Shown here piece after piece: positions 32 to 63,000 of a stretch of 64,000 bases of DNA (its first letter is position 1; each line of letters starts with the position of its first letter). Below the pieces are notes generated by a model that was given only the letters and a program-made list of their open reading frames with translations, did not search any database and had not been told where the DNA came from. Source of the DNA: a virus. Made by a program: the position numbers and the translations under genes. The DNA is taken from positions 1-64,000 of IMG/VR virus record IMGVR_UViG_3300015371_000006. The stretch is one strand, 5' to 3'.

Positions 32-973
32 CTAGCCGTCGGCCCCGACGACTTCGGCGTCCACGACCTCTTCCTCGTTCGTGTGCTCGGCGATGAACGC
101 CGCCAGCTCGGCCCGCAGCTTCTTGCGGGCGTCGTCGTCGGCTCCGTCGAGCAGGCCCCGCACCTTTGCCTGCCGCCAGGCGCTGGCGTCGATCTCCCGT
201 GCTCCCTCGACCAGCTCGCGCAGCTCGGCCCCCAGGGCGTCGTCGCCGTAGTCGGGCTCGTCGGGCAGCGCGGTGAGGTTGGTCGACCGGCGGTCGATCT
301 CGTCCTCGCCGACCACGCCGCTGACGCTGAACGCCTTGCGCAGCGCGTACTGCTCGGCCACCTTCAGGATCATCGCCGACTTGTGCGACGACCAGGGCGT
401 CTTGCCGCCTCGGTCGTACTCGCTCAGCGGGGCGAAGTAGAACGTCGGCTCGTGGCCCTCGCGCCGGACCTCTGCCCAGGCACCAACGATGGCCCCTCGG
501 GTCGAGTCGCCGGGCTCGGCGTCGTCCTCGGGGCGCGCGGACTTCCAGCTGTAGACGTGATGGACGTTGCGTGCGCCCTCGTCGTAGCTGACCGTGAACT
601 CGTCGTTCTCATGCACGACGTCGCCGATGATGCCCCGGAAGTCGTCGGACTTGTGCGCCAGCGCCAGCAGCCCGTCGCGGCTGACGATGATCTGGACCGC
701 GCCCTGGATCTTCGCCGCGAACACCTGCTTGGCGAACGGGTCCAGCTCGTAGCGGCCGCAGACTTCCAAGAACATGACGAGTTCCGCGTCGGTGCACTCC
801 TTGGCGACGGTCCGGCGGATCGCCTCCACCTGCTTCGGGTCGAACCCATAGCGCGCAGGCTGCAGGATCGAGTCGGGTCGTTCGTGCAGAATGACGCCCT
901 GCTCCTCGCCCGGTTCGTCGGTCGCGCCGTCGGCGGGTGCCTCGGGCTCGGCCTTGGCCTTCTTCTCAGCCAT
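32..973 (-). CDS. bet: Phage single-strand annealing recombinase (Bet/RecT family)
   Basis: Motifs ELVMFLEVCGRYELDPFAKQVF, IIVSRDG, GAWAEVRR and WSSHKSAMILKVAEQYALRKAF match Red-beta/Bet proteins; acidic C-terminus; AAGGAGG RBS. Confidence 0.88.
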   Translation of the reverse strand: MAEKKAKAEPEAPADGATDEPGEEQGVILHERPDSILQPARYGFDPKQVEAIRRTVAKECTDAELVMFLEVCGRYELDPFAKQVFAAKIQGAVQIIVSRDGLLALAHKSDDFRGIIGDVVHENDEFTVSYDEGARNVHHVYSWKSARPEDDAEPGDSTRGAIVGAWAEVRREGHEPTFYFAPLSEYDRGGKTPWSSHKSAMILKVAEQYALRKAFSVSGVVGEDEIDRRSTNLTALPDEPDYGDDALGAELRELVEGAREIDASAWRQAKVRGLLDGADDDARKKLRAELAAFIAEHTNEEEVVDAEVVGADG

Positions 974-977
974 ATGA

Positions 978-990
978 CCTCCTTGGTCGG
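978..990 (-). promoter_or_regulatory. Start-associated motif CCGACCAAGGAGG upstream of bet
   Basis: Same motif recurs upstream of ligase, Ku, SSB, DUF932 and other genes. Confidence 0.75.
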
Positions 991-1020
991 ATCGATTGCC
1001 CTCCAGGCTACCGCTCGACC

Positions 1021-1420
1021 AGGACGAAGGCCCCCACGAGGGGGGCCTTCAGGAGTCCGGGCGGCGGCCAGTCCGGTCGTCGGCCTTGCGGGCGTCGCCG
1101 GGGTTTGCGGGCGGGGGAGCACACACTGCACCCCGTCCGGCCGGTGTGTCCGATCTACGGACTCGGCGGCACCGTACCACGAGCGAGGGCCCGCCGAAGC
1201 GAGCCCTCTCGCGGCGGTGTCCGGCCCGGTGACGTTGGGCGACGGACGACGACCCGTTGTCACCTTCGCCTTCCTCGTCAGGAAGCCTCCGCTGCGCGCG
1301 ACTGTACCCCAAGAAGAGGCGAAGCCGCCCGAAGGCGGCCCGCCGAGCTTCAGATTCCGTGCGCCACAACCCGACCAAGGGTGTCCCGAGAGGAACATTG
1401 GCGCACGGTCGCGCTCTGCG
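1021..1420 (-). ncRNA. Putative structured non-coding RNA, family unknown
   Basis: About 500-nt gap with no credible CDS; nested stems (1357-1366/1399-1408; 1296-1302/1408-1414); two cUUCGg hairpins (1324-1339, 1185-1208); stem mismatches read as G-U only on the minus strand; TAAGAT -10 at 1425-1430; closing hairpin 1026-1050. Confidence 0.6.
1026..1050 (-). terminator. 10-bp GC-rich hairpin, probable terminator
   Basis: gaaggccccc-acgag-gggggccttc is a perfect inverted repeat; no U-tract follows. Confidence 0.55.
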
Positions 1421-1493
1421 CCGGATCTTACACGGCCTCGTAGGCGCGCCGTCGAAGAAGCGCTGGACGTTCGCTATTTCCGGGCTGCGCGCC

Positions 1494-1982
1494 TCAGTCG
1501 ATGTAGATCGGCGTACCCACGGGCACGACGGCGTACAGCTCGATGACGTCGTCGACGTGCATCCGCAGGCAGCCGTGGGACTCCGCGAAGCCGATGCTGG
1601 CGTCGTCTGCGGTCCCGTGGATGCCCACGCCGTCGCTCGGGGCGGTGACGCCCAGCCAGCGCGCCTTCAGCGGGTTGTTCGGGTCGCCGCCCTTGATGAC
1701 CGTCCCGCGCAGCTCGGGGTCCACCCAGGGGCTGTTCGGCATCAGCCAGTCGGGGTCTTTGACCCGCGAGTTGATGATGTAGAGGCCCTTCGGGGTGTTG
1801 AAGCCCGGTGCGCCGATGGCGACCTTGTAGCGCAGGGCCTGATCGAATTCGACGTCGACCTTGTCGCGGGTGTAGAGCGTCAGCACCTTGCGGTCGCGCT
1901 CGCACACCAGCATCTTCTGCGGGGCCGCCGCGATCTTCTCCAGCTCGTGGGCGGCCCGTCGTTCTCCGCGTTGATCGTTCAT
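1494..1982 (-). CDS. L,D-transpeptidase (YkuD family)
   Basis: VAIG...TPKG motif and catalytic GIHGT...SHGCLRM. Confidence 0.9.
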   Translation of the reverse strand: MNDQRGERRAAHELEKIAAAPQKMLVCERDRKVLTLYTRDKVDVEFDQALRYKVAIGAPGFNTPKGLYIINSRVKDPDWLMPNSPWVDPELRGTVIKGGDPNNPLKARWLGVTAPSDGVGIHGTADDASIGFAESHGCLRMHVDDVIELYAVVPVGTPIYID

Positions 1983-2737
1983 GGGCTCCAGACGTTGACG
2001 TATTTGGTCATGGTGCCGGGGTCGTTGTGCGCGGCGCTACCGAGCGAGTAGTGCTGGCACCACTCCAGCGGCGTCTCGACGGCGTTGCCGTCGGGGAACT
2101 TCGCGCCGATGTTCTTGACCCAGGTCTGCGGCGTCGTCCAGTAGCTCGACAGGCCGCTGACGCCCTTCGTGGCGATCTGGTCGGCCCCGTAGGGATAGTT
2201 GTGACTCAGCATCGCCAGCCGCCACGCCTTCTCGTGCGTCGGTGCTCCGGTCTTGCCGTAGTAGGTGTCCTTGCGTCCGCGCAGCGTCCGGGCGCTGAGG
2301 TTGAGCTGGTAGTAGCCGTCGAAGGCACGCTTGACCACGGCCTCGTCGGCGTAGTCGGCCTCCAGCACCCGACGCTGGGTGTAGCTGCAGTCGACGCCGC
2401 CCGCCACGGTCCAGTTGACCGCCCCGACCAGGTCGCCCGACTCCCCGGTGACCTGCCCGCGCAGCAGCCCTTCGGGCAGGTCGGCGGTGACCCTGCGCTC
2501 CAGCTCCCGCGCCATCGACGACGACGACGCGGGGCCGAAGATCCCGTCGACGGCGAGCCCTTCGTTCGACTGGAACTGGCGGACGGCCTCGTGCGTCGCC
2601 TTGCCGAACAGGCCGTCGGTCGCCAGGCCCCACCCGAGGGCGTTCAGGTTCTTCTGCACGCCCCAGGTGACGATGTTGAAGGTCGGCGACGCCTCCTTGC
2701 GCACCGAGTAGACGGTCGAGGACGGGATCAGCCCCAT
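1979..2737 (-). CDS. Peptidoglycan-binding protein with possible SLT/lysozyme-like C-terminal domain (endolysin-like)
   Basis: PG_binding_1 signature DGLFGKATHEAVRQFQ...LAVDGIFGP; C-terminal LLRGQVTGESG and LAMLSHN resemble SLT motifs. Confidence 0.65.
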   Translation of the reverse strand: MGLIPSSTVYSVRKEASPTFNIVTWGVQKNLNALGWGLATDGLFGKATHEAVRQFQSNEGLAVDGIFGPASSSSMARELERRVTADLPEGLLRGQVTGESGDLVGAVNWTVAGGVDCSYTQRRVLEADYADEAVVKRAFDGYYQLNLSARTLRGRKDTYYGKTGAPTHEKAWRLAMLSHNYPYGADQIATKGVSGLSSYWTTPQTWVKNIGAKFPDGNAVETPLEWCQHYSLGSAAHNDPGTMTKYVNVWSP

Positions 2738-3177
2738 CAGTCGCCGCCGGGTCCGTCCTCCGGCGCGATGTCGTCCGGCTGGCTCAGCAGGAAGTCATCG
2801 TCCGCCTCGATGTAGGGGCCGCCCGCCGCGTTATCGGCGGCCGCCGGGCTCTCGTTCTGTTGGATCGGCGGCTGCTTGCGGTGGTAGCGCGACAGCATCG
2901 GGTCGGCCGTCGGCGACGCCAGCTGGGCCTCGTACTTCTGCCACCCGTCGAGCCACTTGTACGCCGCGACGATTGCGCCGGACGTGGCGACGGTGAAGAT
3001 CCCCGCCAGCCAGTTCGGGTCGAGCGGCGGGATGCCGGGGAAGTGCGCGGCAACCCAGGTGGCGACGAAGCCCGCCAGGGATGCGAGCGGCGCTGCCAGC
3101 ACGGCGACGACGCGGTTGGGCGGCCACTGCTCTCGCAGCTTCGCGTAGAGCTTCTGTAGCCAGCTCGGGGATTCCAT
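2737..3177 (-). CDS. Holin-like membrane protein
   Basis: Two hydrophobic helices; lies between two endolysin-like genes. Confidence 0.6.
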   Translation of the reverse strand: MESPSWLQKLYAKLREQWPPNRVVAVLAAPLASLAGFVATWVAAHFPGIPPLDPNWLAGIFTVATSGAIVAAYKWLDGWQKYEAQLASPTADPMLSRYHRKQPPIQQNESPAAADNAAGGPYIEADDDFLLSQPDDIAPEDGPGGD

Positions 3178-3186
3178 TCGTGCCTC

Positions 3187-4047
3187 CTAGTAGCGGTCTC
3201 CGGCCAGCGCCTTCAGGGTCTTGAACCGGAACTCGCGGTCCTCGTGGTTCCACCCGTGGTCGTCGGCCGTGTCCTTGATCGAGTGCGCTCGCTTGGCGGC
3301 CCACTCGCGGTGGCCCCTGATCTGCTCGCGCTCCTTGTCGGTGATGTTGTCGCCCGCCATCAGCAGCCGGGCGCGGTTGACGTGCTCGCGTTCGTCGTTG
3401 TAGAGCTTGTCCTTGTGGCGCAGCACCCGCCAGGTCTTGCCGCCGACCACGCCGTCTGAGCCGAGGTGGTGGATCAGCTGGAACTCGCGGACGGCGTCGG
3501 CGGTGTTCTCGCCGAAGCTGCCGTCCGCCTTGGGCCGCGTGACTCCCACGTTCCAGCGGTGCAGGTGCTTCTGCATCCGCTTCACAGCGTCGCCCTTGTC
3601 GCCCTTCTTGAGCACCGGGTAGCGGTTCTCTGTGCTGCCGCCGCCGGGGTCGCTGCCGTTCCAGACTCCGGCGCGGTACTTCAGATGCCAGGGCTCCCAG
3701 CTTGCGTCCGACCACTCCTTGGCCCAGCCGAACTGGTGGCCGTATTGGTCGATCAGCGAGCGGACGTAGGGCGGCACGTCGACGGCCAGGCCCCAGCCGT
3801 GGTTGGAGGTGCCGGGGACGGCAGCGTTCTGACACGCGCCGCGACCACACCAGTAGTTGCGCCAGTAGACCTGGCGAGCGTAGGAGCGGTAGCCCGAGTC
3901 GGGGCCGTTGATCTGAATCCACGTCCCGGTTCGGTCGTGGATGTAGTGCGCCATCGCGTTCCAGGCGGCGGCCGCTCCGTTCGCCAGCTGCGTGCCGCCC
4001 ACGATGGGCGATAGCTCGGCGTCGGTCAGGTATCCGTTCGCTGACAC
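3187..4047 (-). CDS. Endolysin: M15/VanY-type zinc peptidase plus peptidoglycan-binding domain
   Basis: SGYRSYARQ, PGTSNHGWGLAVD, EPWH; PG-binding DGSFGENTADAVREFQ...DGVVGGKTW. Confidence 0.88.
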   Translation of the reverse strand: MSANGYLTDAELSPIVGGTQLANGAAAAWNAMAHYIHDRTGTWIQINGPDSGYRSYARQVYWRNYWCGRGACQNAAVPGTSNHGWGLAVDVPPYVRSLIDQYGHQFGWAKEWSDASWEPWHLKYRAGVWNGSDPGGGSTENRYPVLKKGDKGDAVKRMQKHLHRWNVGVTRPKADGSFGENTADAVREFQLIHHLGSDGVVGGKTWRVLRHKDKLYNDEREHVNRARLLMAGDNITDKEREQIRGHREWAAKRAHSIKDTADDHGWNHEDREFRFKTLKALAGDRY

Positions 4048-22432: not shown

Positions 22433-22996
22433 TCAGCGACCCGACGGGTTCTGCGTCGTGTAGGGGTAGGTGATCGCCGGGAGCTTCGTGACCGGGTTGG
22501 TCTGCCCCGTGCGGACGAAGGCCTCGATGGGCTTCTCGTTCTCGTAGGTGAACGGGAACTCCAGGTCGCGGATGTCGTCGCCGATGTTGAAGCCGAGCGG
22601 CAGTCGCCACAGCAGGCAGCCGTCGAGCTGCCAGCGCTCGACGCCGAGGGCCTCGGGATCGTCGTAGCCGACCAGCAGGCTGAAGGGCCGCAGGACGCTG
22701 TTCTCGGTCCCGCGCATCGCTCGGCGCTCCTCCAGCGTCGTCGATACGAAGCGGTAGACCTCCAGCTCCCACTTGGAGTCGATCTTCTGGCAGCGGAAGG
22801 TGCCCTCTCGCGTGATCCGGCCGGGCTTGTAGCCCTGCTTGCCGGTGCCGACGATGGGGACTTCGATCCGGTTGACCTCGGCGGTGGCCGTGACCTCGGT
22901 GACCTCGGCGAGCAGGTTGCCTGCCAGGTCGCGGGCCTCTCCCCACATGCCGCTGATGCGGAAGAGCCCCTCGTTGTTGATCAGTGGGGAAGGCAT
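22433..22996 (-). CDS. Tail tube protein (XkdM-like)
   Basis: ISGMWGE, EGTF..KIDS, DDPEALG.ER, EFPFT; directly after sheath. Confidence 0.85.
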   Translation of the reverse strand: MPSPLINNEGLFRISGMWGEARDLAGNLLAEVTEVTATAEVNRIEVPIVGTGKQGYKPGRITREGTFRCQKIDSKWELEVYRFVSTTLEERRAMRGTENSVLRPFSLLVGYDDPEALGVERWQLDGCLLWRLPLGFNIGDDIRDLEFPFTYENEKPIEAFVRTGQTNPVTKLPAITYPYTTQNPSGR

Positions 22997-25394: not shown

Positions 25395-25900
25395 GTCAGC
25401 GTCGCCCAGGGGTTCTGTCGTTCGACCTCGCGGGTCCAGTTGCGCATCACGGGCCGCACGAGGCGCTCCCACGTCGCCTCCAGCCAGTTGGCGCTGATCT
25501 CCAGCATGTGATTGCCCGGCGAGCCGGGGTGCATGACGTAGGAGGCGAAGCGGTCCTGGCCGGTGGCGCGGTCCACCCAATGCAGCGTGCCGCCGGGCGT
25601 CTTCGGGACGATCAGGTACTTGCGGTGCTCGGGGCCGTAGAGGCCGGTGCCGTCGTTGACGTAGGCCGCGTAGTCGGTGTCGTTGTACCACTCTGCCTGC
25701 CAGCCCAGGCCGATGAAGGTCATCGTCCTGACCGCCCGCGAGGTCTGCCAGTTGTCGCGCAGGTCGCCCGTGTCGACCGGGGTGTTCGTCGCCGCGATCT
25801 CGGCGGCCTCGGTGACGCCGACGCGGATCATGTTGCGGATCGCGCGCGGGTTCGGATCGCTGTCGAACCAGGGGGCCAGCTTGCCGCCGATGTACGCCAT
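25391..25900 (-). CDS. HK97 gp10-family neck protein
   Basis: TPVDTGDLRDNW, YAAYVNDGTG, VMHPG. Confidence 0.85.
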   Translation of the reverse strand: MAYIGGKLAPWFDSDPNPRAIRNMIRVGVTEAAEIAATNTPVDTGDLRDNWQTSRAVRTMTFIGLGWQAEWYNDTDYAAYVNDGTGLYGPEHRKYLIVPKTPGGTLHWVDRATGQDRFASYVMHPGSPGNHMLEISANWLEATWERLVRPVMRNWTREVERQNPWATLT

Positions 25901-32169: not shown

Positions 32170-32291
32170 CTCCTTGGTCGGTGCTTCAGATCATAGCACA
32201 CCCTAGCTACGATCTGTAGCGCGCTCCCGGTCCGCCCCGTTGCGGGGTGTGCTATCATGTGTAGCAGTTGTTCCCGACCAGGAGGTTCCCG
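32170..32291. promoter_or_regulatory. Divergent promoter region with three GCTA(C/T)-N5-GTAGC-like palindromes and two CCGACCA leader motifs
   Basis: Palindromes at 32183-32197, 32206-32220 and 32251-32265; extended -10 elements TGcTATGAT (-) and TGcTATCAT (+). Confidence 0.75.
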
Positions 32292-32724: not shown

Positions 32725-32997
32725 ATGGCCTCCGATCCCCGCCACCCGCTCGCCCTTCCCGACTCCCCGCTCGCCTGCGTGGTCTGCGAAGGCTTCGGCT
32801 CCGTCTACGTCGACGGGTCCGGCTGCAACGACTACGACTGCGGCGCGTGCGATGCGCTCGGCTTCCACGCCGACCGCGTGACCGCGTTGCAGGTCGAGGC
32901 GCTGTTGGAGGACGAGGCGCGCACCGAGGATGCGTGGCTCGCCGCCGAGGAGGCTTATCTGTTGTCCGTCAACCCGACCGAGGAGGTTCTGTCATGA
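32725..32997 (+). CDS. Small CxxC-CxxC zinc-binding protein
   Basis: CVVCEGFG...CGACDALG. Confidence 0.6.
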   Translation: MASDPRHPLALPDSPLACVVCEGFGSVYVDGSGCNDYDCGACDALGFHADRVTALQVEALLEDEARTEDAWLAAEEAYLLSVNPTEEVLS

Positions 32998-33393: not shown

Positions 33394-33438
33394 TGTGCTA
33401 CAGTCTGTAGCTCCAGTTCCCGACCAAGGAGGCCCCTC

Positions 33439-35185: not shown

Positions 35186-35220
35186 CGAGGCCTCCTTGGT
35201 CGGGTAACGATGCCAGGAGG

Positions 35221-50800: not shown

Positions 50801-52346
50801 GCTGGTATTGCCTGACCGCCTGTTGGAAGCCCTGGCCGCCGCCGCCCACCTTGTCGGCGATGGCCGATCCCAGGCCACCGGAGGCCGAGCGGATGAACTG
50901 GCCGCCGCCGGTCCGGCCCTTCGCGGCGCGCGGGTGCTTCTTTTCGAAGTCGCCTCCGGCCGACTGGCCGTCGCGGCCCTTCGGCTTCTTGCCGTAGTTC
51001 ATCCCCCAGCGCGTGGTCCCGAAGGGCGTCGTGATCGACTTCGTGCGGAACTCCTCCACGTCGGCGATGCTCTCCTCCAGCTTGTCGCCGTTCTTGCCGT
51101 GGCGCTTGAGCAGCGCCCACGTCTCCGGCCCGATGGCCCCGTCGGCCTTCAGCCCGTAGCGGCGCTGGATGCGCTTGACGCCCTTCTCGGTCTCCGGCCC
51201 GAAGCGCCCGTCCGGCCCGGCGTCGCCGACGTAGGTGCCCATCGCACCCATCGCCTCCTGGGCGGCCTTGACGGAGGGGTCGCCCTCGCCCTGTCCGACG
51301 CCCCGGCCCTTCGCCAGCCAGACGTTCGCGCTGGGCGTATCCGTGGGCGTATCCGTGGGCGTATCGTCGGCGTCCGCGTCGCCCTCGGGCTCGCTCGGGT
51401 TCGCCTCCTCATCAGGATTTCCCCCATTGGGGGAACCGGCGCGCAGCTTCTCCACGTCCTCGGGCGAGGTGCCGCGCATGGCGATCCGGGTCTTGTCGCC
51501 CAGCACGCCGTCGGGCTTCAGCTCGTGGTCGCCCTGAAAGCTCTCGACCGCGCCCTTGGTCTCCTCGCCGTACTCCCCGTCGACGCCGACGTCGTAGCCC
51601 AGCGTCTTCAGCCTGGCCTGGGCCTGGCCTACGAGTTCCCCGGACCCTCCCTGCTTGAGGGTCAGCCCGTCGCTATGTGCCTCGGTAGGGCGGCCTCGTG
51701 GGCTACGCGCTTTGACCTTGGACATGCGCCGCTCTGCATCAGCGACCGGGTCGTCCTTGGCCTCGCGTACCTCCCCGCCCAATTCCTTGGCGAGAGCACG
51801 AAGCTCGGTTGCCTCGGTCAGCAGCGCTCTCGCTGCCTGCGCCTGAGCGCGGGGTTCGGCCGGTGGGCCACCCATCTGCACGATCCGCACGGATTCGCTG
51901 AGCGGAGTTTCGATCAGCTCGGGGACGGCCTTGACCAGTCCCGCCTTGCCCGTTGTCCTCGGTTCGCTGAGCGGTCCCAGCGCGCCCTCGATGACGACCA
52001 GCCGCGCTTGCACCTCGCGCAGCACCCGCGCCGCCTCCTCGTCGCTGAGGATCAGGTCGGCGACCTCGGCCTCGGTCAGCTTCTTGCGCGAGTGCTTCAG
52101 TCGCCCCGGATCGAACTTGTCGAGCAGCACGGCGCAGCGGCGGTTCGCGTGATCCTTGCTGAGCCCGTGCTTGACCTGGTCGCGCACGCAGGACGTGAAC
52201 GGGTGCGGTTTCGCCAGGTAGTGCTTCGCCAGCGGCGCGATCTTCTTCGTGTCGCCAGGGGTTACGTCCGCCGTGCCGGGCTTGCTGAAGGTCTCCACCT
52301 CTTCGAGGTCACGCCTCTCGGGCGGCTGTTGCTGCGCCTCGGCCAC
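44823..52346 (-). CDS. Giant modular protein (~2507 aa): three peptidoglycan-binding domains, zinc ribbon, DUF6582-like domain, then GQxSP-delimited modules
   Basis: Probable GTG start at 52346 just after a TACGAT -10; DGxxGxxT PG-binding motifs; CPECG..CKKCG; SDFALPDRRYPIHDEAHARNALAR; 13 GQxSP motifs. Confidence 0.8.
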   Translation of the reverse strand: MAEAQQQPPERRDLEEVETFSKPGTADVTPGDTKKIAPLAKHYLAKPHPFTSCVRDQVKHGLSKDHANRRCAVLLDKFDPGRLKHSRKKLTEAEVADLILSDEEAARVLREVQARLVVIEGALGPLSEPRTTGKAGLVKAVPELIETPLSESVRIVQMGGPPAEPRAQAQAARALLTEATELRALAKELGGEVREAKDDPVADAERRMSKVKARSPRGRPTEAHSDGLTLKQGGSGELVGQAQARLKTLGYDVGVDGEYGEETKGAVESFQGDHELKPDGVLGDKTRIAMRGTSPEDVEKLRAGSPNGGNPDEEANPSEPEGDADADDTPTDTPTDTPSANVWLAKGRGVGQGEGDPSVKAAQEAMGAMGTYVGDAGPDGRFGPETEKGVKRIQRRYGLKADGAIGPETWALLKRHGKNGDKLEESIADVEEFRTKSITTPFGTTRWGMNYGKKPKGRDGQSAGGDFEKKHPRAAKGRTGGGQFIRSASGGLGSAIADKVGGGGQGFQQAVRQYQRENGLMVDGIVGHQTATALLSGGEAAQVTPGALTPQDKRKLRKRLLGNKPAADTSTPEPKLTDAERNKRRKKRNARNPQRDQSLAEADTKAEKEGKGDETTEQSVKCPECGTEQSARNADCKKCGHSLSKARDEKFKAKAAANKKEVEEGTLTAAARKKRPDSDFALPDRRYPIHDEAHARNALARVSQHGSADEKKKVRAAVKRRYPNIDVQEAACELLEASLRGAARKTSELAARIARIRRLPDGTFAPEGRGRVLRPGDSVSLGGSRGKVTPDGKSVMVAGHKLQLSPPSLQAAPSEEADAAVRSLAPQRRALERRKRVPSTGKAPELPKLDYDAALEKMRADSYQASPGLSDHDMLRQLAKKRSRIDTHMSDAEMDDVVSMIKMTDGNLAADVAKNGVNKENTRRVFGNLAKSLRNKTIIDPEDLDLIVKLRDAKPGGQRSPGEALSKDEIVGDLDYLWPGEEQSYGLTWVKAREDGLVDVHYADGSVGEGYDPPRAAEAVLDDQDYLARKQANDYARAKGAHNRRLASGGVSSMPPLGQRSPTMTLGGTPEHESIQRSIRQIRSRTSANAEMRDKQIAQLLSRVAEKRELTKGEKRQLKNAGGSVPVTTGPLGQASPGGKLSREERDAAARAAYPVGTNITTKVARIGGQEDLVQGEVVDHKFGQLRVKTDNHGTLVVPLDKVETSDQEVEPPPGFTDSMGGQHSPGQASPGTGKKKLGWTKGWEGDTSKARYVWGSMDKLINADSQSWADKYGTAAVDNDGNRFMIYGNSGYGGITTNGKAYRVGKDGKRESEAFMTASGGKPEIYARLGATAPDKSGKRFIPQGRTDQASYDYTDEPGMLAWAFTKEQLQSALDEDDGDAVMLKFDYEEMVPRPAVEAALAIQKTGQWSPGSSPGSGRLEVRKERGGKLDEYVWDRPGPEPGLTGGRVVAQRAGRGWYIYEGDPQTVGSTGSVRGRPMSDAQFAATYPDLRRFAGGQASPSSSLSREDALDAAEKLAVGDEVAVAPNAVIARDDEHSYVITDLEGTFVFGDAKTPDDVAELHDELANEAARDEAVDREIDDRKMGQRSPAMKVVDPKAAQSREKLQADLKAKHFPKADEVNVNEAQGVVEVWKDGRAQLYRLPGQQSPGYPGFLAGGAKAQAAANKADAARAKRQEAEGTGIWAKANPWPDPMKLPDAVDEGVGLGVHPLAKGTGVIFGKDGQASPKLWETEIAKVEAQGKDADGEFIDDLAGDVQSDWFPVVAEHDDYRAQEYVDLLQRLEDALDTVHGNPKGTSRGLYSDEDRFDNEIADAAADMLDPNYGQYSPGLAVGTQYEVTLLKNGAELDRFGETQLNSGAKLERTPDGINISSGGVTGRVQTFPVNAVMLADALDRSPPDVSAVLLPAWDEYANGSDKKASAKVLSELGGLKLGQASPGSVPDGFTPNTSSTELGEVPVGTKFIHDGYGYVVHKANGNWVIAKPIDPSTGEILTSDPAPSKYQGEKRRIFHYRMPPGAFGDMHPDYSDEWSVTPAAPLPVNPESPVRSAKGNIRNVKAMNDGKLKNLWADMSPYAHADPDGYAAVQTEMESRGFTTGAPAPVAAPVSASAPEPAPKPTPAPVAAQTAGNDDDLYDLLKKSVASVGAKSGDPAGDAPPASYIEPGAKADAADKALYDAPDLGMFSPEGNLAVDRMVKAIVNAEPGEREMMLKGTMDIISSDHPEVNDTAVRDEIATALKAEGVPLSDVGWIDLTLDKGGPTPSGEDPLAGLGDQPKPGTTPDFTPGEPEPGDDQKVSPAYSAKGNLRNIPKMSDAKLAGLADQMVGYEDKDPWAAQQVNNELEARGMDSVLADAKAAKIEAKAFADHGEPPAEEPTPTAAPNMSDRVATLNDAEPGHTETLPNGTQIVKTKSTYLVVKPTPGESYDSPEVYKDAKAAVDRADEWDAEPEVTEADQRLADAAQSLGPDWNAAAVQSALAQLATQGIDLDPAVENADTLVAVIKAAGLKP
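46533..49760 (-). repeat. Dispersed 15-nt / 5-aa motif GGC CAG NNN AGC CCC (GQxSP), 13 copies
   Basis: Copies start (+ coordinates) at 46533, 46860, 47163, 47397, 47574, 47841, 48111, 48654, 48669, 48936, 49161, 49464 and 49746 (last is YQASP). Confidence 0.85.
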
Positions 52347-56632: not shown

Positions 56633-56683
56633 GTTGGCCTCCTTGGTCGGTTGACCGGACAGCCTACCAGCAATTTCTTACGG

Positions 56684-59639: not shown

Positions 59640-59659
59640 CTGTCGCTCCTTCGGTAGTG

Positions 59660-59690
59660 CCTTGGTCGGTGCTACCGACTGTAGCACACC
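59660..59690 (-). promoter_or_regulatory. Promoter/operator cassette TGTGCTACAGTCGGTAGCA-CCGACCAAGG
   Basis: Palindrome at 59671-59685; leader motif at 59660-59669. Confidence 0.72.
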
Positions 59691-59698
59691 GGGCGGCG

Positions 59699-60052
59699 CT
59701 AACGGAAGGCTGCGGGGGCCGTTGAGTGGAGCGCGGTGAGCAGCCGTTGGCGGGTCGCGCGCGGGGTGGCCCTGAAGGTGAGGCCCTCGCTGAGTTGCGC
59801 CCGTCGGTACGCCTTGCGGCACTTCGTCTTGCCGATGCCCGGCGTGTGGATGATCAGCGCGGCGATGCGCATCGTCGTCAGCCACTCCGGGTCTTCGTGG
59901 GGGTGTCGCCCAAGCAGCTCCTCCAGCGTGACCTCGCCGGACTTGAGTTGCCCCTTCAGCTTTGACCTTGAGGACCGATGCGCGTTCGCCTTGCGCAGCG
60001 CCCTCTCGCGCTGCTCCAGCTGGTGGCCGGTCCCTGCAACCGATATCGCCAT
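59699..60052 (-). CDS. mihF: Actinobacterial integration host factor homologue (mIHF/sIHF, H2TH fold)
   Basis: QRERALRKAN..R..RSKLKGQLKSG.VTL.ELL, MRI..L....PGIGK.K, TRQRLL. Confidence 0.82.
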   Translation of the reverse strand: MAISVAGTGHQLEQRERALRKANAHRSSRSKLKGQLKSGEVTLEELLGRHPHEDPEWLTTMRIAALIIHTPGIGKTKCRKAYRRAQLSEGLTFRATPRATRQRLLTALHSTAPAAFR

Positions 60053-60067
60053 GCGCGGCACGCTACC

Positions 60068-63000
60068 TCACGAGTCCAGCTCACGGACCCGGTTCACGCC
60101 GCTGACCAGGAACGCCTTGCCGGTCGCGGGCCGCCAGATCAGAACCAGGCCCCCTCCGGCGGCCTGCACGTAGATGTATTCGTTGCCGCCCTTGTCGCGG
60201 AAGCCCTGGCCCGGCATCAGATCCTTGACGTGGGGGTGCTTGTATTTCCCGCCGCTTCCCCATGCGGATTTGTAGCCCAGCAGATCGGTCATCGGGACGC
60301 CGCTGATGCTCCCGTGCTCGGCGAGGATCTTCGCCAGCAGCGCCTTCGCGTCGCCGCCCGTGTTCGTCTCGGCCTCCACGTCGGGGCTGCTCAGCTCGGT
60401 CGCAGCCTTCGGCTGCACGTCGTCGAGCTTGGTCTGGTCGCTGACCACCTGCAGCAGCCCGCTCTGCAGATCCTTGACGATCACCTGGTTGCCCTGGCTC
60501 GGGCCGGGCGGGGTCTTGAAGGCGACCACCTGGAAGGGATGCCCGCTCGCGTTCTCGAACTCGTACTCGGGTTCCATGTCGTAGAGGTAGCCCCCGGTGA
60601 ACGGCGTCGTCTCGGTTTCGGCCTCCGGGTCGGCGGCGGGCGGTTGCTCGGGGAGGTCCGCCAGCGGCGTGCCGGGGCTCACCTTGGTCATCCCGGCGGC
60701 GTCGGGGCCGGAAGGCCCCACGACCTTCTCGCCGTTCGCCAGCTCGGCCACGACGATCCACGGCTCGCCATCCGGGCCGGTGAAGGTTTCGCCGCCCTGC
60801 AGCTGGTCGATGTTCGTCGGCTCGGGGTCGGGCGGTGTCGGCGCGACGCTGATCTTCGCGGGCTTCAGCGCCCCGACCACTCCGGTGATCGTTGACTCGG
60901 TGCCGTTCTGCAGGCTGACCGCCTTCTCGTGGTCCGACTTCATGAACTTGTAGCCGCCGTATTCGTAGGTGCTGCCGATGGGCAGGTCGTCGACGGCGAG
61001 GCCTTCGGTGTTGTCGTAGGTCGGCGGGTCGTGGTCGGGGATCGTCTGCGTCGGCGTCGGCGTCTGTGGCGGCAGCGCCATGCCGCCGGGCGGGCCGGGC
61101 ACAAAGCCCTCTTCGAACTTCAGCGTCTCGCCGGGGTCGCCGCTACTCCCGAAGCTCTTCTTCAGCAGCGTCACCTCGACCTGTCCGTTGACCGGGCCGC
61201 CCTGCACCTCGTAGATCGAGCCGGAGGCCATCTTGATCTGCGTCCCTGCGGGCATCTCGCCCAGCGTGGCGGTGGTCGGCTGGAAGGCCGCTTCGGGGAA
61301 CGGCGCGGCCAGGCCCTCGGGCGGCTCCACGCTGATCGGCGTGCCCCCTCCCGCCGGGGTCGCCAGCGCCTTCACGTCCTTGGCGTAAACCATCTTCAGG
61401 CCGCCCGTGGTGTAGACGCCCTTGATCCCGGTGCCCGCCACCTGGTTGTCGGTGATCTTGACCGTCTGCCCGTCCGTCAGCTCCACGACGTCGCCGTTCG
61501 CCAGCGAGTTGAAGAGTTCCTCCTGGTCGGCGGTTGCGATTCCCGCCTCGGGCGCTGGCCAGGTGATGACGGTCGGGTTGTCGACCGTCGTGTCCATCGG
61601 CACGGTGCCCCCGGTCGCCACGTTCTCCAGGTCGACGAAGCCGTCGAAGTTGTTCGTCACCTTGTAGCGGACGTCCTGGTAGATGACGGTCTGCCCCACC
61701 GGGATGTCGGCGAGCTTCACCTGCGCGCCGGTGGCCCCCGGAGGTGCCGCAACAGCGCCCGGCTCGTCTACGTCGGTCATCTGCGGCCCCGGCTGCGTGA
61801 CCACCTTCTCCAGGCTGACCGTGTACTCCTTCTGGCCCTTCTGGATCAGCAGCGCGTCCTTGCCCGACGGCGTGGTCGCTGATCCGACCACGGTGCCGGT
61901 CCAGGTCTTGCCGTCGGCGCGCTTCATCTCGACCGTCTGCCCCAGCTCGTAGCCGTGGTGCTTGATCGGCTCAGCGGGTGCCATGTCCAGGCCCTGTCCC
62001 GGCGGCGGCGGGGCGTCCATCGTCTCCTCGGGCAGCTCGCGCACGCGCAGCTTTCCGCTCACGGTGAAGTTCGTCTGCCCGTCGGAGATGATCGGCTCGT
62101 CGCCCGCGACCTGCAGCTTGAACAGCTTTCCGGTCTTGTCGCGGAACACGGTCCCGGCGGGCAGGTTCTTGATCCGCTCGTGCTTGTAGGCCCCGCCCGG
62201 CCCGTGGGAGGACTTGTAGGGCACCAGCTGGTCGCCGATGTCGAACAGCGCGTCCTCGGCCTGCTCGGACTGGTTGAGGCTCGGCGACGTGGTTGCGGGC
62301 TTGAGCGCAGGGTGGCTTTCGCCGTAGGTGACGTTGTCGCTCGGGGCGGGCATCGTCGTCTTCTGCGGGTTCAGCGTCCCGTCCTCGCGGATCAGGTTGC
62401 CGGTGATCTGCTTCTCGCCCGACTCGCCGACCGACACGCCGGTCACCTGCCACACCTTGCCGTCGTGGATGAACGTGTCGAAGTTCTCCAGCTGCTCGGC
62501 TTGGACCGTGTCGCCCGGCTTCAGCTCGGAGTGCGGGGTCAGCGACTTCGGCGGCCCGGACTTCTTGACCTGGCTCTCGTTGGTCGGGCTCTCGTGGTCG
62601 TGCCCCACGCCACCGTCTGCCGACTCCAGGGACTTGACCTTCTTCTTCAGCAGCGCCTTGCCGGTCTCCCCGGTGTCCAGGTTCGTGAAGTAGACCCAGC
62701 TCTCGTCCTTGCTGTCCACGCGGTAGGGGCGGATGCGCGAGCCCCGGCCGCCGTGGAACAGGTCGCCGTCGGCGAGGTCGCCCATCTGCGTGGACTTGCC
62801 GATCTTCCACGCCTTCGGGTTGAACAGGCCCTGCAGCGCGTCGTTGTCAGGGTCGATCTGCACGACCTTCGCGCCGGGCTTGGCCTCCTTGATCGAGACG
62901 ATGCCGTTCTTCTTGACCGAGGTGACGACGTGCTTGGCCCCGTTGTAGGCCAGCGTCATCCCCTTCTCCGGCGGCTGCTTCAGCTTGAAGTAGCCCTCGA

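Follow-up and report, generated by a model that had tools for sequence, protein, structure and literature searches.

The c4 antisense RNA of phages P1 and P7 is a small phage RNA whose gene is upstream of its target and on the same strand, and which uses exposed loops to pair with the ribosome-binding region of the downstream gene. It targets a single operon and arises by processing of the same transcript. By analogy, it is the nearest characterised mechanism to the element described here, which lies on the minus strand of the first 64,000 bases (the window) of the IMG/VR virus record IMGVR_UViG_3300015371_000006, in the gap upstream of the recombinase gene recT. The element is a candidate small RNA gene with a predicted hairpin loop that carries the complement (the anti-tag) of a short motif (the leader tag) found before the start codons of many genes of the same phage. 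It departs from c4 in that its target sequence is common to about 19 leaders, and in that a terminator and a promoter stand between the RNA and its nearest target. The Rfam C4 family (RF01695) had no match at E values up to 10 in positions 900-1600.

A second parallel is provided by the start-associated sequences (SAS) and extended SAS of the Cluster K mycobacteriophages, which are short asymmetric motifs with a Shine-Dalgarno core (Pope et al. 2011, PMC3203893). The SAS occurs in 11-19 copies a few bases before start codons, at non-structural genes only and in one orientation; inverted repeats precede about half of the copies, and the consensus of these repeats is specific to each subgroup while the motif is constant (PMC3203893). 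K1 phages carry a single oppositely oriented SAS that does not lie at a gene start, which was left uninterpreted, and the partner of the motif was left open as "RNA or protein" (PMC3203893). In the genome of the phage Anaya we found 16 forward copies of the SAS and one reverse copy. The reverse copy is in the loop of a 6-base-pair (bp) hairpin within the 385-base gap between gp96 and gp97 (fold z-score -7.3), and gp97 has no SAS. This gap (L304 34683-35070; record positions 59682-60069) opens with a terminator.

The leader tag resembles the SAS in being a short asymmetric motif, present far above chance, that lies by start codons, has a Shine-Dalgarno core, is restricted to non-structural genes and has a single reverse copy. 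As in Cluster K, the palindromic operators differ between phages (the related genomes G001 and G002 versus the window) while the tag is constant. It differs from the SAS, which has a 13-base consensus, in motif sequence and phage lineage, and in its position at the extreme 5' end of very short leaders. Because motif and lineage differ, we regard the present system as an analogue of the Cluster K SAS and not as a member. The stoperators of Cluster A mycobacteriophages, the sites of the L5 repressor, are many 13-base asymmetric sites with an orientation bias relative to transcription (cited in PMC3203893). They are repressor sites on DNA and are not fused to a ribosome-binding site, whereas the motif here overlaps the Shine-Dalgarno sequence and its reverse copy sits in a conserved RNA-like fold.

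The leader tag

The tag is a 10-mer, CCGACC followed by AAGG, which usually continues into the AGG of the Shine-Dalgarno sequence. With at most one mismatch, it occurs 23 times in the window, against 6.85 +/- 2.5 times in shuffled sequences, none of which reached 23. The 13-mer formed by the tag plus AGG has 10 copies in the genome, while its reversed control has none. Eighteen exact 10-mers are found in the genome. Fourteen are located before a start codon, with AGG or an equivalent and then the start codon following within 4-20 bases, three are in coding sequence (as Pro-Thr-Lys), and one is intergenic and reversed. This last copy, at 1371-1380 on the plus strand, is the sole intergenic reverse copy in the genome and runs opposite to the strand of the genes.

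When one-mismatch copies are included, the tag heads about 19 genes in the 111.6-kilobase (kb) genome, seven of them in the window (Table 1); the original prediction, made from the sequence of the window alone, had put the number at about 10, which was off. Its placing of the tag in the leaders of recT (there named bet), ligase, Ku, SSB and DUF932 is borne out, and Pfam confirms the identities of these genes. Apart from them, the tagged set includes genes for a DUF4190/DUF2510 protein, a DUF6011 protein and a HARE-HTH protein; the ligase is ATP-dependent. All of the tagged genes are non-structural and have the tag in their own orientation, and not one gene in the structural block (2-31 kb) is headed by a copy.

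The tag lies 1-25 bases 3' of one of two types of promoter. In the first, a TACAGT-centred palindrome of 15 bases contains the -10 box and precedes the tag by 1-9 bases; the second has a TAGCCT or TAGGCT box, usually with a preceding GG. Since nearly every tag runs straight into the Shine-Dalgarno sequence although its spacing from the promoter is variable, the leaders are likely to be only about 20-30 bases long and to start with the tag. One copy, at genome position 109896 (within 109880-109910, L180), is inside the last codons of the upstream gene, whose stop codon abuts the next start codon and leaves no room for a promoter between them. The relatives G001 and G002, with complete genomes of 130 and 135 kb, have the identical tag in 24-25 exact 10-mers each, and their palindromic operators differ in sequence. 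The constancy of the tag despite differing operators, together with the operon-internal copy, suggests that the tag works at the RNA level as a signal linked to translation, with stronger conservation than the adjoining transcription signals. Pairing of an extended stretch of the tag to the actinobacterial 16S rRNA at its 3' end was considered and dropped, as only AAGGAGG fits.

Several copies have unusual surroundings. In the leader of a 78-amino-acid gene (59650-59682, minus strand), the tag is in a hairpin loop with a separate Shine-Dalgarno sequence 8 bases downstream, making it a possible loop-loop partner of the anti-tag hairpin. At genome positions 85121-85130 (minus strand; L179, about 1121-1130), a palindrome-type promoter precedes a one-mismatch tag with no start codon nearby, which may represent another non-coding transcript or a long leader. 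At G001 22938-22947 and 51023-51032 and at G002 68711-68720, an operator-type promoter and tag precede a shared short sequence, a small hairpin and then a distant Shine-Dalgarno sequence, resembling a conserved structured variant of the leader.

The anti-tag element of the window

The reverse copy of the tag is part of a predicted fold on the minus strand, the components of which are listed in Table 1. The anti-leader hairpin (H2) sits inside a predicted three-way junction, and its loop has an unpaired probability of 0.98. Together with its 3' flank to position 1367, H2 is the complement of the leader tag plus the CAAC flank of the tag. The terminator-like hairpin (T1) begins about 12 bases past the junction, as it does in related phages.

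The structural details that had been noted at first, namely the closing repeat (1357-1366/1399-1408), H2, TAAGAT, two UUCG loops, a GCAA loop and a terminal hairpin, are all present. They had been assigned to a single RNA of 410 bases; two units are more likely, namely an anti-leader RNA of 105 nucleotides (nt) with its terminator at 1311-1344, and a distinct structured stretch of about 290 nt. Nothing similar to the second stretch, 1021-1310, occurs elsewhere in this genome or among the relatives, in which the entire gap measures 215-250 bases. The conserved element is therefore about 105 nt long and not 410, and the remainder may be a second RNA or an insertion. No Rfam family reached its gathering score in the window, and only chance-level matches were obtained at E values up to 10. 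A replication origin (an origin-like DNA element) was rejected, given that iterons are absent and that the corresponding regions of the relatives are so short.

Table 1. Positions of the tag and of candidate promoter and predicted RNA features, with the anti-tag stems of related phages (positions refer to the window unless marked as genome; MFE, minimum free energy)
Feature	Position or stem	Strand	Basis or remark
-10-like box TAAGAT, candidate promoter of putative small RNA	1425-1430	-	read from sequence
Closing helix P1, 5' strand	1399-1410	-	pairs with 1357-1366; MFE and centroid structures agree
Closing helix P1, 3' strand	1357-1366	-	exact 10-bp complement of 1399-1408
Hairpin H1 (5 bp, UCUC loop, one U-G pair)	1383-1396	-	predicted fold
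Anti-leader hairpin H2 (stem ACCC/GGGU, loop UUGGUC)	1369-1382	-	predicted fold
Terminator-like hairpin T1 (UUCG loop, 1318-1344) and U-rich tract (1311-1317), where the 105-nt RNA is proposed to end	1311-1344	-	predicted fold
Second structured non-coding stretch, about 290 nt (TACAGT box 1301-1306, second UUCG loop, GCAA loop, terminal hairpin 1025-1050)	1021-1310	-	
-10-like box TAGCCT, recT promoter	1005-1010	-	read from sequence; same box type before other tagged genes
Leader tag and Shine-Dalgarno of recT (13-mer)	978-990	-	motif counts, genome listing
recT, RecT family recombinase	32-973	-	Pfam PF03837, E 4.5e-35
Leader tag, ATP-dependent DNA ligase gene	32172-32181	-	
Leader tag, 83-amino-acid gene	32974-32983	+	one mismatch, pairs as G-U
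Leader tag, Ku gene	33420-33429	+	
Leader tag, SSB gene	35194-35203	-	
Leader tag, DUF932 gene	56641-56650	-	
Leader tag, 78-amino-acid gene	59660-59669	-	tag in leader-hairpin loop, separate downstream Shine-Dalgarno
TACAGT-centred palindromes	33395-33411, 59670-59690 and others; genome 74650, 85140, 94650, 110500		
Anti-tag stem, window and G002	ACCC/GGGU		
Anti-tag stem, L170	AACCC/GGGUU		
Anti-tag stem, G001	GUCC/GGAC		two compensatory pairs
Anti-tag stem, L171	ACCU/GGGU		a U-G pair
Anti-tag stems, G003 and G004	shorter		five-base loops

Recurrence at the recT loci of related phages

Related recT loci were gathered by alignment of RecT homologues combined with DNA patterns, which gave eight loci with a co-directional upstream gene: the window, G001, G002, G003, G004, L170, L171 and L301 (G001 is equivalent to L012, G002 to L013, G003 to L009, and G004 to the near-identical L010 and L011). 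RecT identity to the window protein is 49-59% in the seven found by the RecT search; L301 was found by the DNA pattern and its RecT was confirmed by Pfam. The same arrangement is present at all eight recT loci whose upstream gene is co-directional. In the order of the gene strand, the stop codon of the upstream gene is followed by a TAnnnT box and, after a spacer of 28-63 bases, by the anti-tag; beyond a further, short spacer come a GC hairpin trailed by a U-rich tail, the box of the recT promoter and the tagged recT leader.

Seven of the eight loci have the TAnnnT box, at 28-63 nt upstream of the anti-tag, and L170 has TAGCCC. L301 and G001 have TAGCCT, the box type also found before tagged genes, with GG in front of it in L301. 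In seven loci a terminator hairpin is followed by a U-rich tail on the gene strand, the tail of the window being the weakest. The downstream gene encodes RecT in every case, and the upstream gene varies, coding for YkuD, a peptidoglycan-binding protein, an M15 peptidase, an HNH endonuclease or a protein of unknown function. When the gaps of the eight phages are aligned with MAFFT, the only invariant columns are one C plus GGTCGG, and the gaps are otherwise unalignable. In G006, whose RecT is 39% identical and whose upstream gene is divergent, the element is absent.

A search for RecT homologues yielded about 100 more, most of them from Logan assemblies; the comparison covers the eight loci above. 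Scanning with the RecT alignment yielded two useful loci from metagenome collections and none from genome collections. A single-protein RecT scan of viral contigs and an exact 23-mer search found no relative, and a 14-mer scan gave only chance matches among the matches listed. Other pairs of the motif on opposite strands (in G006, G008, G010-G012, G014 and L299) are ordinary divergent gene leaders. Two further occurrences were seen outside recT loci. In G005 (25800-25900, minus strand; L165), an orphan anti-tag is in the loop of a GC stem of 7-8 bp, after a small Cys-rich open reading frame (ORF) and before a tagged gene of unknown function. In L301 (8950-8985), a 10-bp GC hairpin away from recT again has UUGGUC as its six-base loop.

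Conserved structure and strand

For each locus, the unit from seven bases past the box to the end of the tail was folded and scored against dinucleotide shuffles. In all eight candidate units (105-141 nt), a closing helix links the 5' end to the stretch ahead of the terminator, the anti-tag hairpin is part of a multiloop, and the terminator comes last; the fold z-scores are -2.9 to -4.3. The five central loop bases are unpaired with probabilities of 0.67-0.99, compared with 0.30-0.39 for the whole RNAs. The closing helix differs in sequence in all eight phages, and the anti-tag stem also varies (Table 1). L170, G003 and G004 have a hairpin of other sequence in the position of H1, and the full three-way junction of closing helix, hairpin 1 and anti-tag hairpin is common to the window and these three phages, built from different sequences. 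RNAalifold recovers the junction from these four phages, with a compensatory double change in 6 of 12 pairs; MAFFT over all eight units misaligned two of the cores. Fast-pairing antisense RNAs reportedly have a YUNR U-turn pattern in their loops, which UUGG at the start of the anti-tag loop fits.

U-rich tails 3' of the terminator hairpins occur on the gene strand only, and the U-G pairs that L171 and L301 have in their anti-tag stems would turn into A-C mismatches on the opposite strand. Together with the promoter-like TAnnnT boxes on that strand, these sequence features point to the gene strand as the one transcribed. Folding energy does not decide between the strands. As the anti-tag is upstream of the terminator, an RNA bearing it would end before the recT promoter.

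Proposed role and alternative explanations

We propose that positions 1314-1418 on the minus strand are the gene for an anti-leader small RNA of about 105 nt (up to 141 nt in relatives) that acts on the tagged mRNAs. Judged from sequence and modelled folds, we put the probability of this reading at roughly 45%. The RNA would start a few bases past TAAGAT, fold into the closing helix with its three-way junction, and end at the GC hairpin and U-rich tail. Its single-stranded loop UUGGUC would seed pairing with the leaders, after which the hairpin would open and the duplex extend, spanning the first 10-14 bases of about 19 leaders and including the first four bases of the Shine-Dalgarno sequence. 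The outcome would be less ribosome loading or marking of the mRNA for cleavage, by which recT and the rest of the tagged set would be tuned together; alternatively, pairing may activate or stabilise the mRNA instead of lowering its translation. Because its loop mirrors the tag common to these genes, one RNA could set the translation of about 19 genes jointly.

The loop and the 3' side of the hairpin complement the tag, and in most phages they also complement two to four bases of the CAAC-type leader flank. In L301 and in G004, the anti-tag has a 5' flank that tracks the recT leader variant of the same phage. Several features support action in trans. The recT leader of G003 is deviant, and the anti-tag of this phage fits the other leaders better and is out of reach of the recT Shine-Dalgarno sequence; the 3' flank of the window's anti-tag matches the CAAC flank of other leaders and not that of recT; and a terminator and promoter separate the anti-tag from the recT leader at all eight loci. 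A trans-acting RNA that switches the tagged genes as a regulon had been proposed in the original prediction. The part of this proposal that concerns the element has been strengthened, for in eight phages the element is conserved and structured, has the bounds of a small RNA and exposes its loop. We infer computationally that it is transcribed, that it acts in trans on the set and that it represses rather than activates.

A number of results weigh against this proposal. The sample is eight sequences. The element adjoins recT at every locus irrespective of the upstream gene, and this is also compatible with a local role. Two tag users that are more distant have no clear orphan copy, with none in G006 and one weak candidate in G008 (orphan-copy scans across G005-G008 were noisy), and the orphan copy of G005 is inside a 5' untranslated region (UTR), 55 nt before a tagged gene and with no terminator between. 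Of the Shine-Dalgarno sequence, only four bases fall within the complementarity, which in G003 and G004 lies mostly 5' of that sequence. As the tag core is invariant in the group, only two phages give a glimpse of loop and tag co-varying. The -10-like boxes are weak and putative, and a scan for sigma-70 and terminator consensus sequences gave zero sites, its criteria being ill-suited to high-GC actinobacterial signals. With regard to strand, the whole-region fold has a z-score of -2.95 on the minus strand versus -3.82 on the plus strand, and in the eight phages the local folding energies are split evenly between the strands (G-U counts 8 versus 4). The earlier argument that the G-U pairs work only on the minus strand is consequently weak, the plus strand folding as well or better and no local preference being seen. 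Ranking of targets by duplexfold was not discriminating in this GC-rich genome, where 69 genes reached -18 kcal/mol or lower versus a mean of 59 with a shuffled probe.

An explanation restricted to recT would have the element act in cis. In a read-through transcript or a long 5' UTR, the anti-tag would mask the recT ribosome-binding site, and recT would be translated only from the transcript of its own promoter. The position beside recT at all eight loci, next to a variable upstream gene, agrees with this, as do the flanks of G004 and L301 that track their own recT leader and the terminator-free copy in the 5' UTR of G005; in the MFE structure of the whole gap, moreover, the anti-tag pairs with the recT leader in four of six cases. 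We consider it unlikely all the same, since the strong terminator and the recT promoter between anti-tag and leader mean that most recT mRNA would lack the anti-tag, and the G003 anti-tag and the 3' flank of the window point away from recT as described above. In Anaya, too, the gene that follows the hairpin has no start-associated sequence. A different explanation places the signal on DNA, the tag being an asymmetric binding site of a phage or host protein, similar to a stoperator, and the reverse copy with its palindromic flanks being one more site, perhaps for a dimer. The L5 stoperators are a precedent for asymmetric, orientation-biased repressor sites (PMC3203893). The tags begin about 1-25 bases past a promoter or operator, CCGACC is conserved in both orientations as expected of a protein site, and folding energies favour neither strand. 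Set against this are the fusion of the tag to the Shine-Dalgarno sequence at a variable distance (1 to 25 bases) from the -10 box and the operon-internal copy, which has no room for a promoter between stop and next start. The U-G pairs break the palindrome yet keep the RNA pairing, and the G004 variant and its leader are set apart by an indel, a difference that pairing can absorb as a bulge but one protein site would not. Finally, the junction and terminator around the copy are conserved as structure rather than as sequence, and a DNA site therefore seems improbable to us.

It is also conceivable that the element is a relic or by-product with no regulatory role, either a degenerate leader left by a divergent promoter that once existed or a piece of the upstream operon's 3' UTR and terminator region. 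Divergent pairs of tagged genes are common in these phages, and on the plus strand the sequence upstream of the copy is similar to this phage's palindromic operator in the window and to the extended leader consensus in G003. No shared opposite-strand promoter is found in G001 and G002, however, and a relic would neither remain invariant at the same place in eight phages with unalignable flanks nor retain hairpin-forming flanks by compensatory changes, which makes this explanation very improbable.

Phage record and genomic setting

The source record is a linear IMG/VR virus of 111,596 bases with a GC content of 69% and an estimated completeness of 89%, and the window is its first 64 kb. The presence of DUF4190, DUF2510 and DUF6011, families typical of actinobacteria and their phages, together with rhizosphere-metagenome labels, suggests an uncultured actinobacterial soil phage. 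No close DNA match was found among cultured phages, in which the best RecT matches are 25-36% identical. Most genes of the window are on the minus strand, where the structural block and lysis cassette have a YkuD L,D-transpeptidase gene (1494-1982) as their last gene, followed by a 520-base gap and then recT. The stand-alone YkuD gene is the 3'-most gene of the lysis cassette (1494-4047), after genes for a peptidoglycan-binding protein, an unknown 146-amino-acid protein and a VanY/peptidoglycan-binding peptidase.

As had been claimed at first, the gap contains no credible coding sequence. The ORFs in 974-1493 miss the coding signature, with a GC content of 0.67-0.85 at the third and 0.62-0.73 at the second codon position, compared with at least 0.92 and at most 0.50 in real genes, and Pfam gave no match for the two longest of them. 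A hidden small protein was dropped as a candidate because this signature is missing.

Significance

The new observations are the anti-tag arrangement at eight recT loci and the location of the reverse SAS of Anaya in a hairpin loop. The SAS has been without a known partner since 2011, and a conserved predicted RNA that has the complement in an open loop provides a concrete, genetically testable hypothesis. Cluster K mycobacteriophages can be cultivated, and their layout is the same. It is this combination of conservation, a cultivable parallel and a testable answer to an open question that makes the finding of interest. It is possible, though on balance rather doubtful, that tag-using phages of several lineages generally encode one small RNA that shows the exact complement of the tag in a hairpin loop and sets the translation of the whole set, that such pairs arose independently, and that this RNA is the missing partner of the Cluster K start-associated sequences. 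In the searchable literature we found no description of a single RNA that controls a phage's own set of genes in this way. If the proposal is true, one RNA of about 100 nt would co-ordinate the translation of about 20 recombination, repair and replication genes of the phage, and the tag and RNA would form a compact, portable pair for switching sets of genes in actinobacteria.

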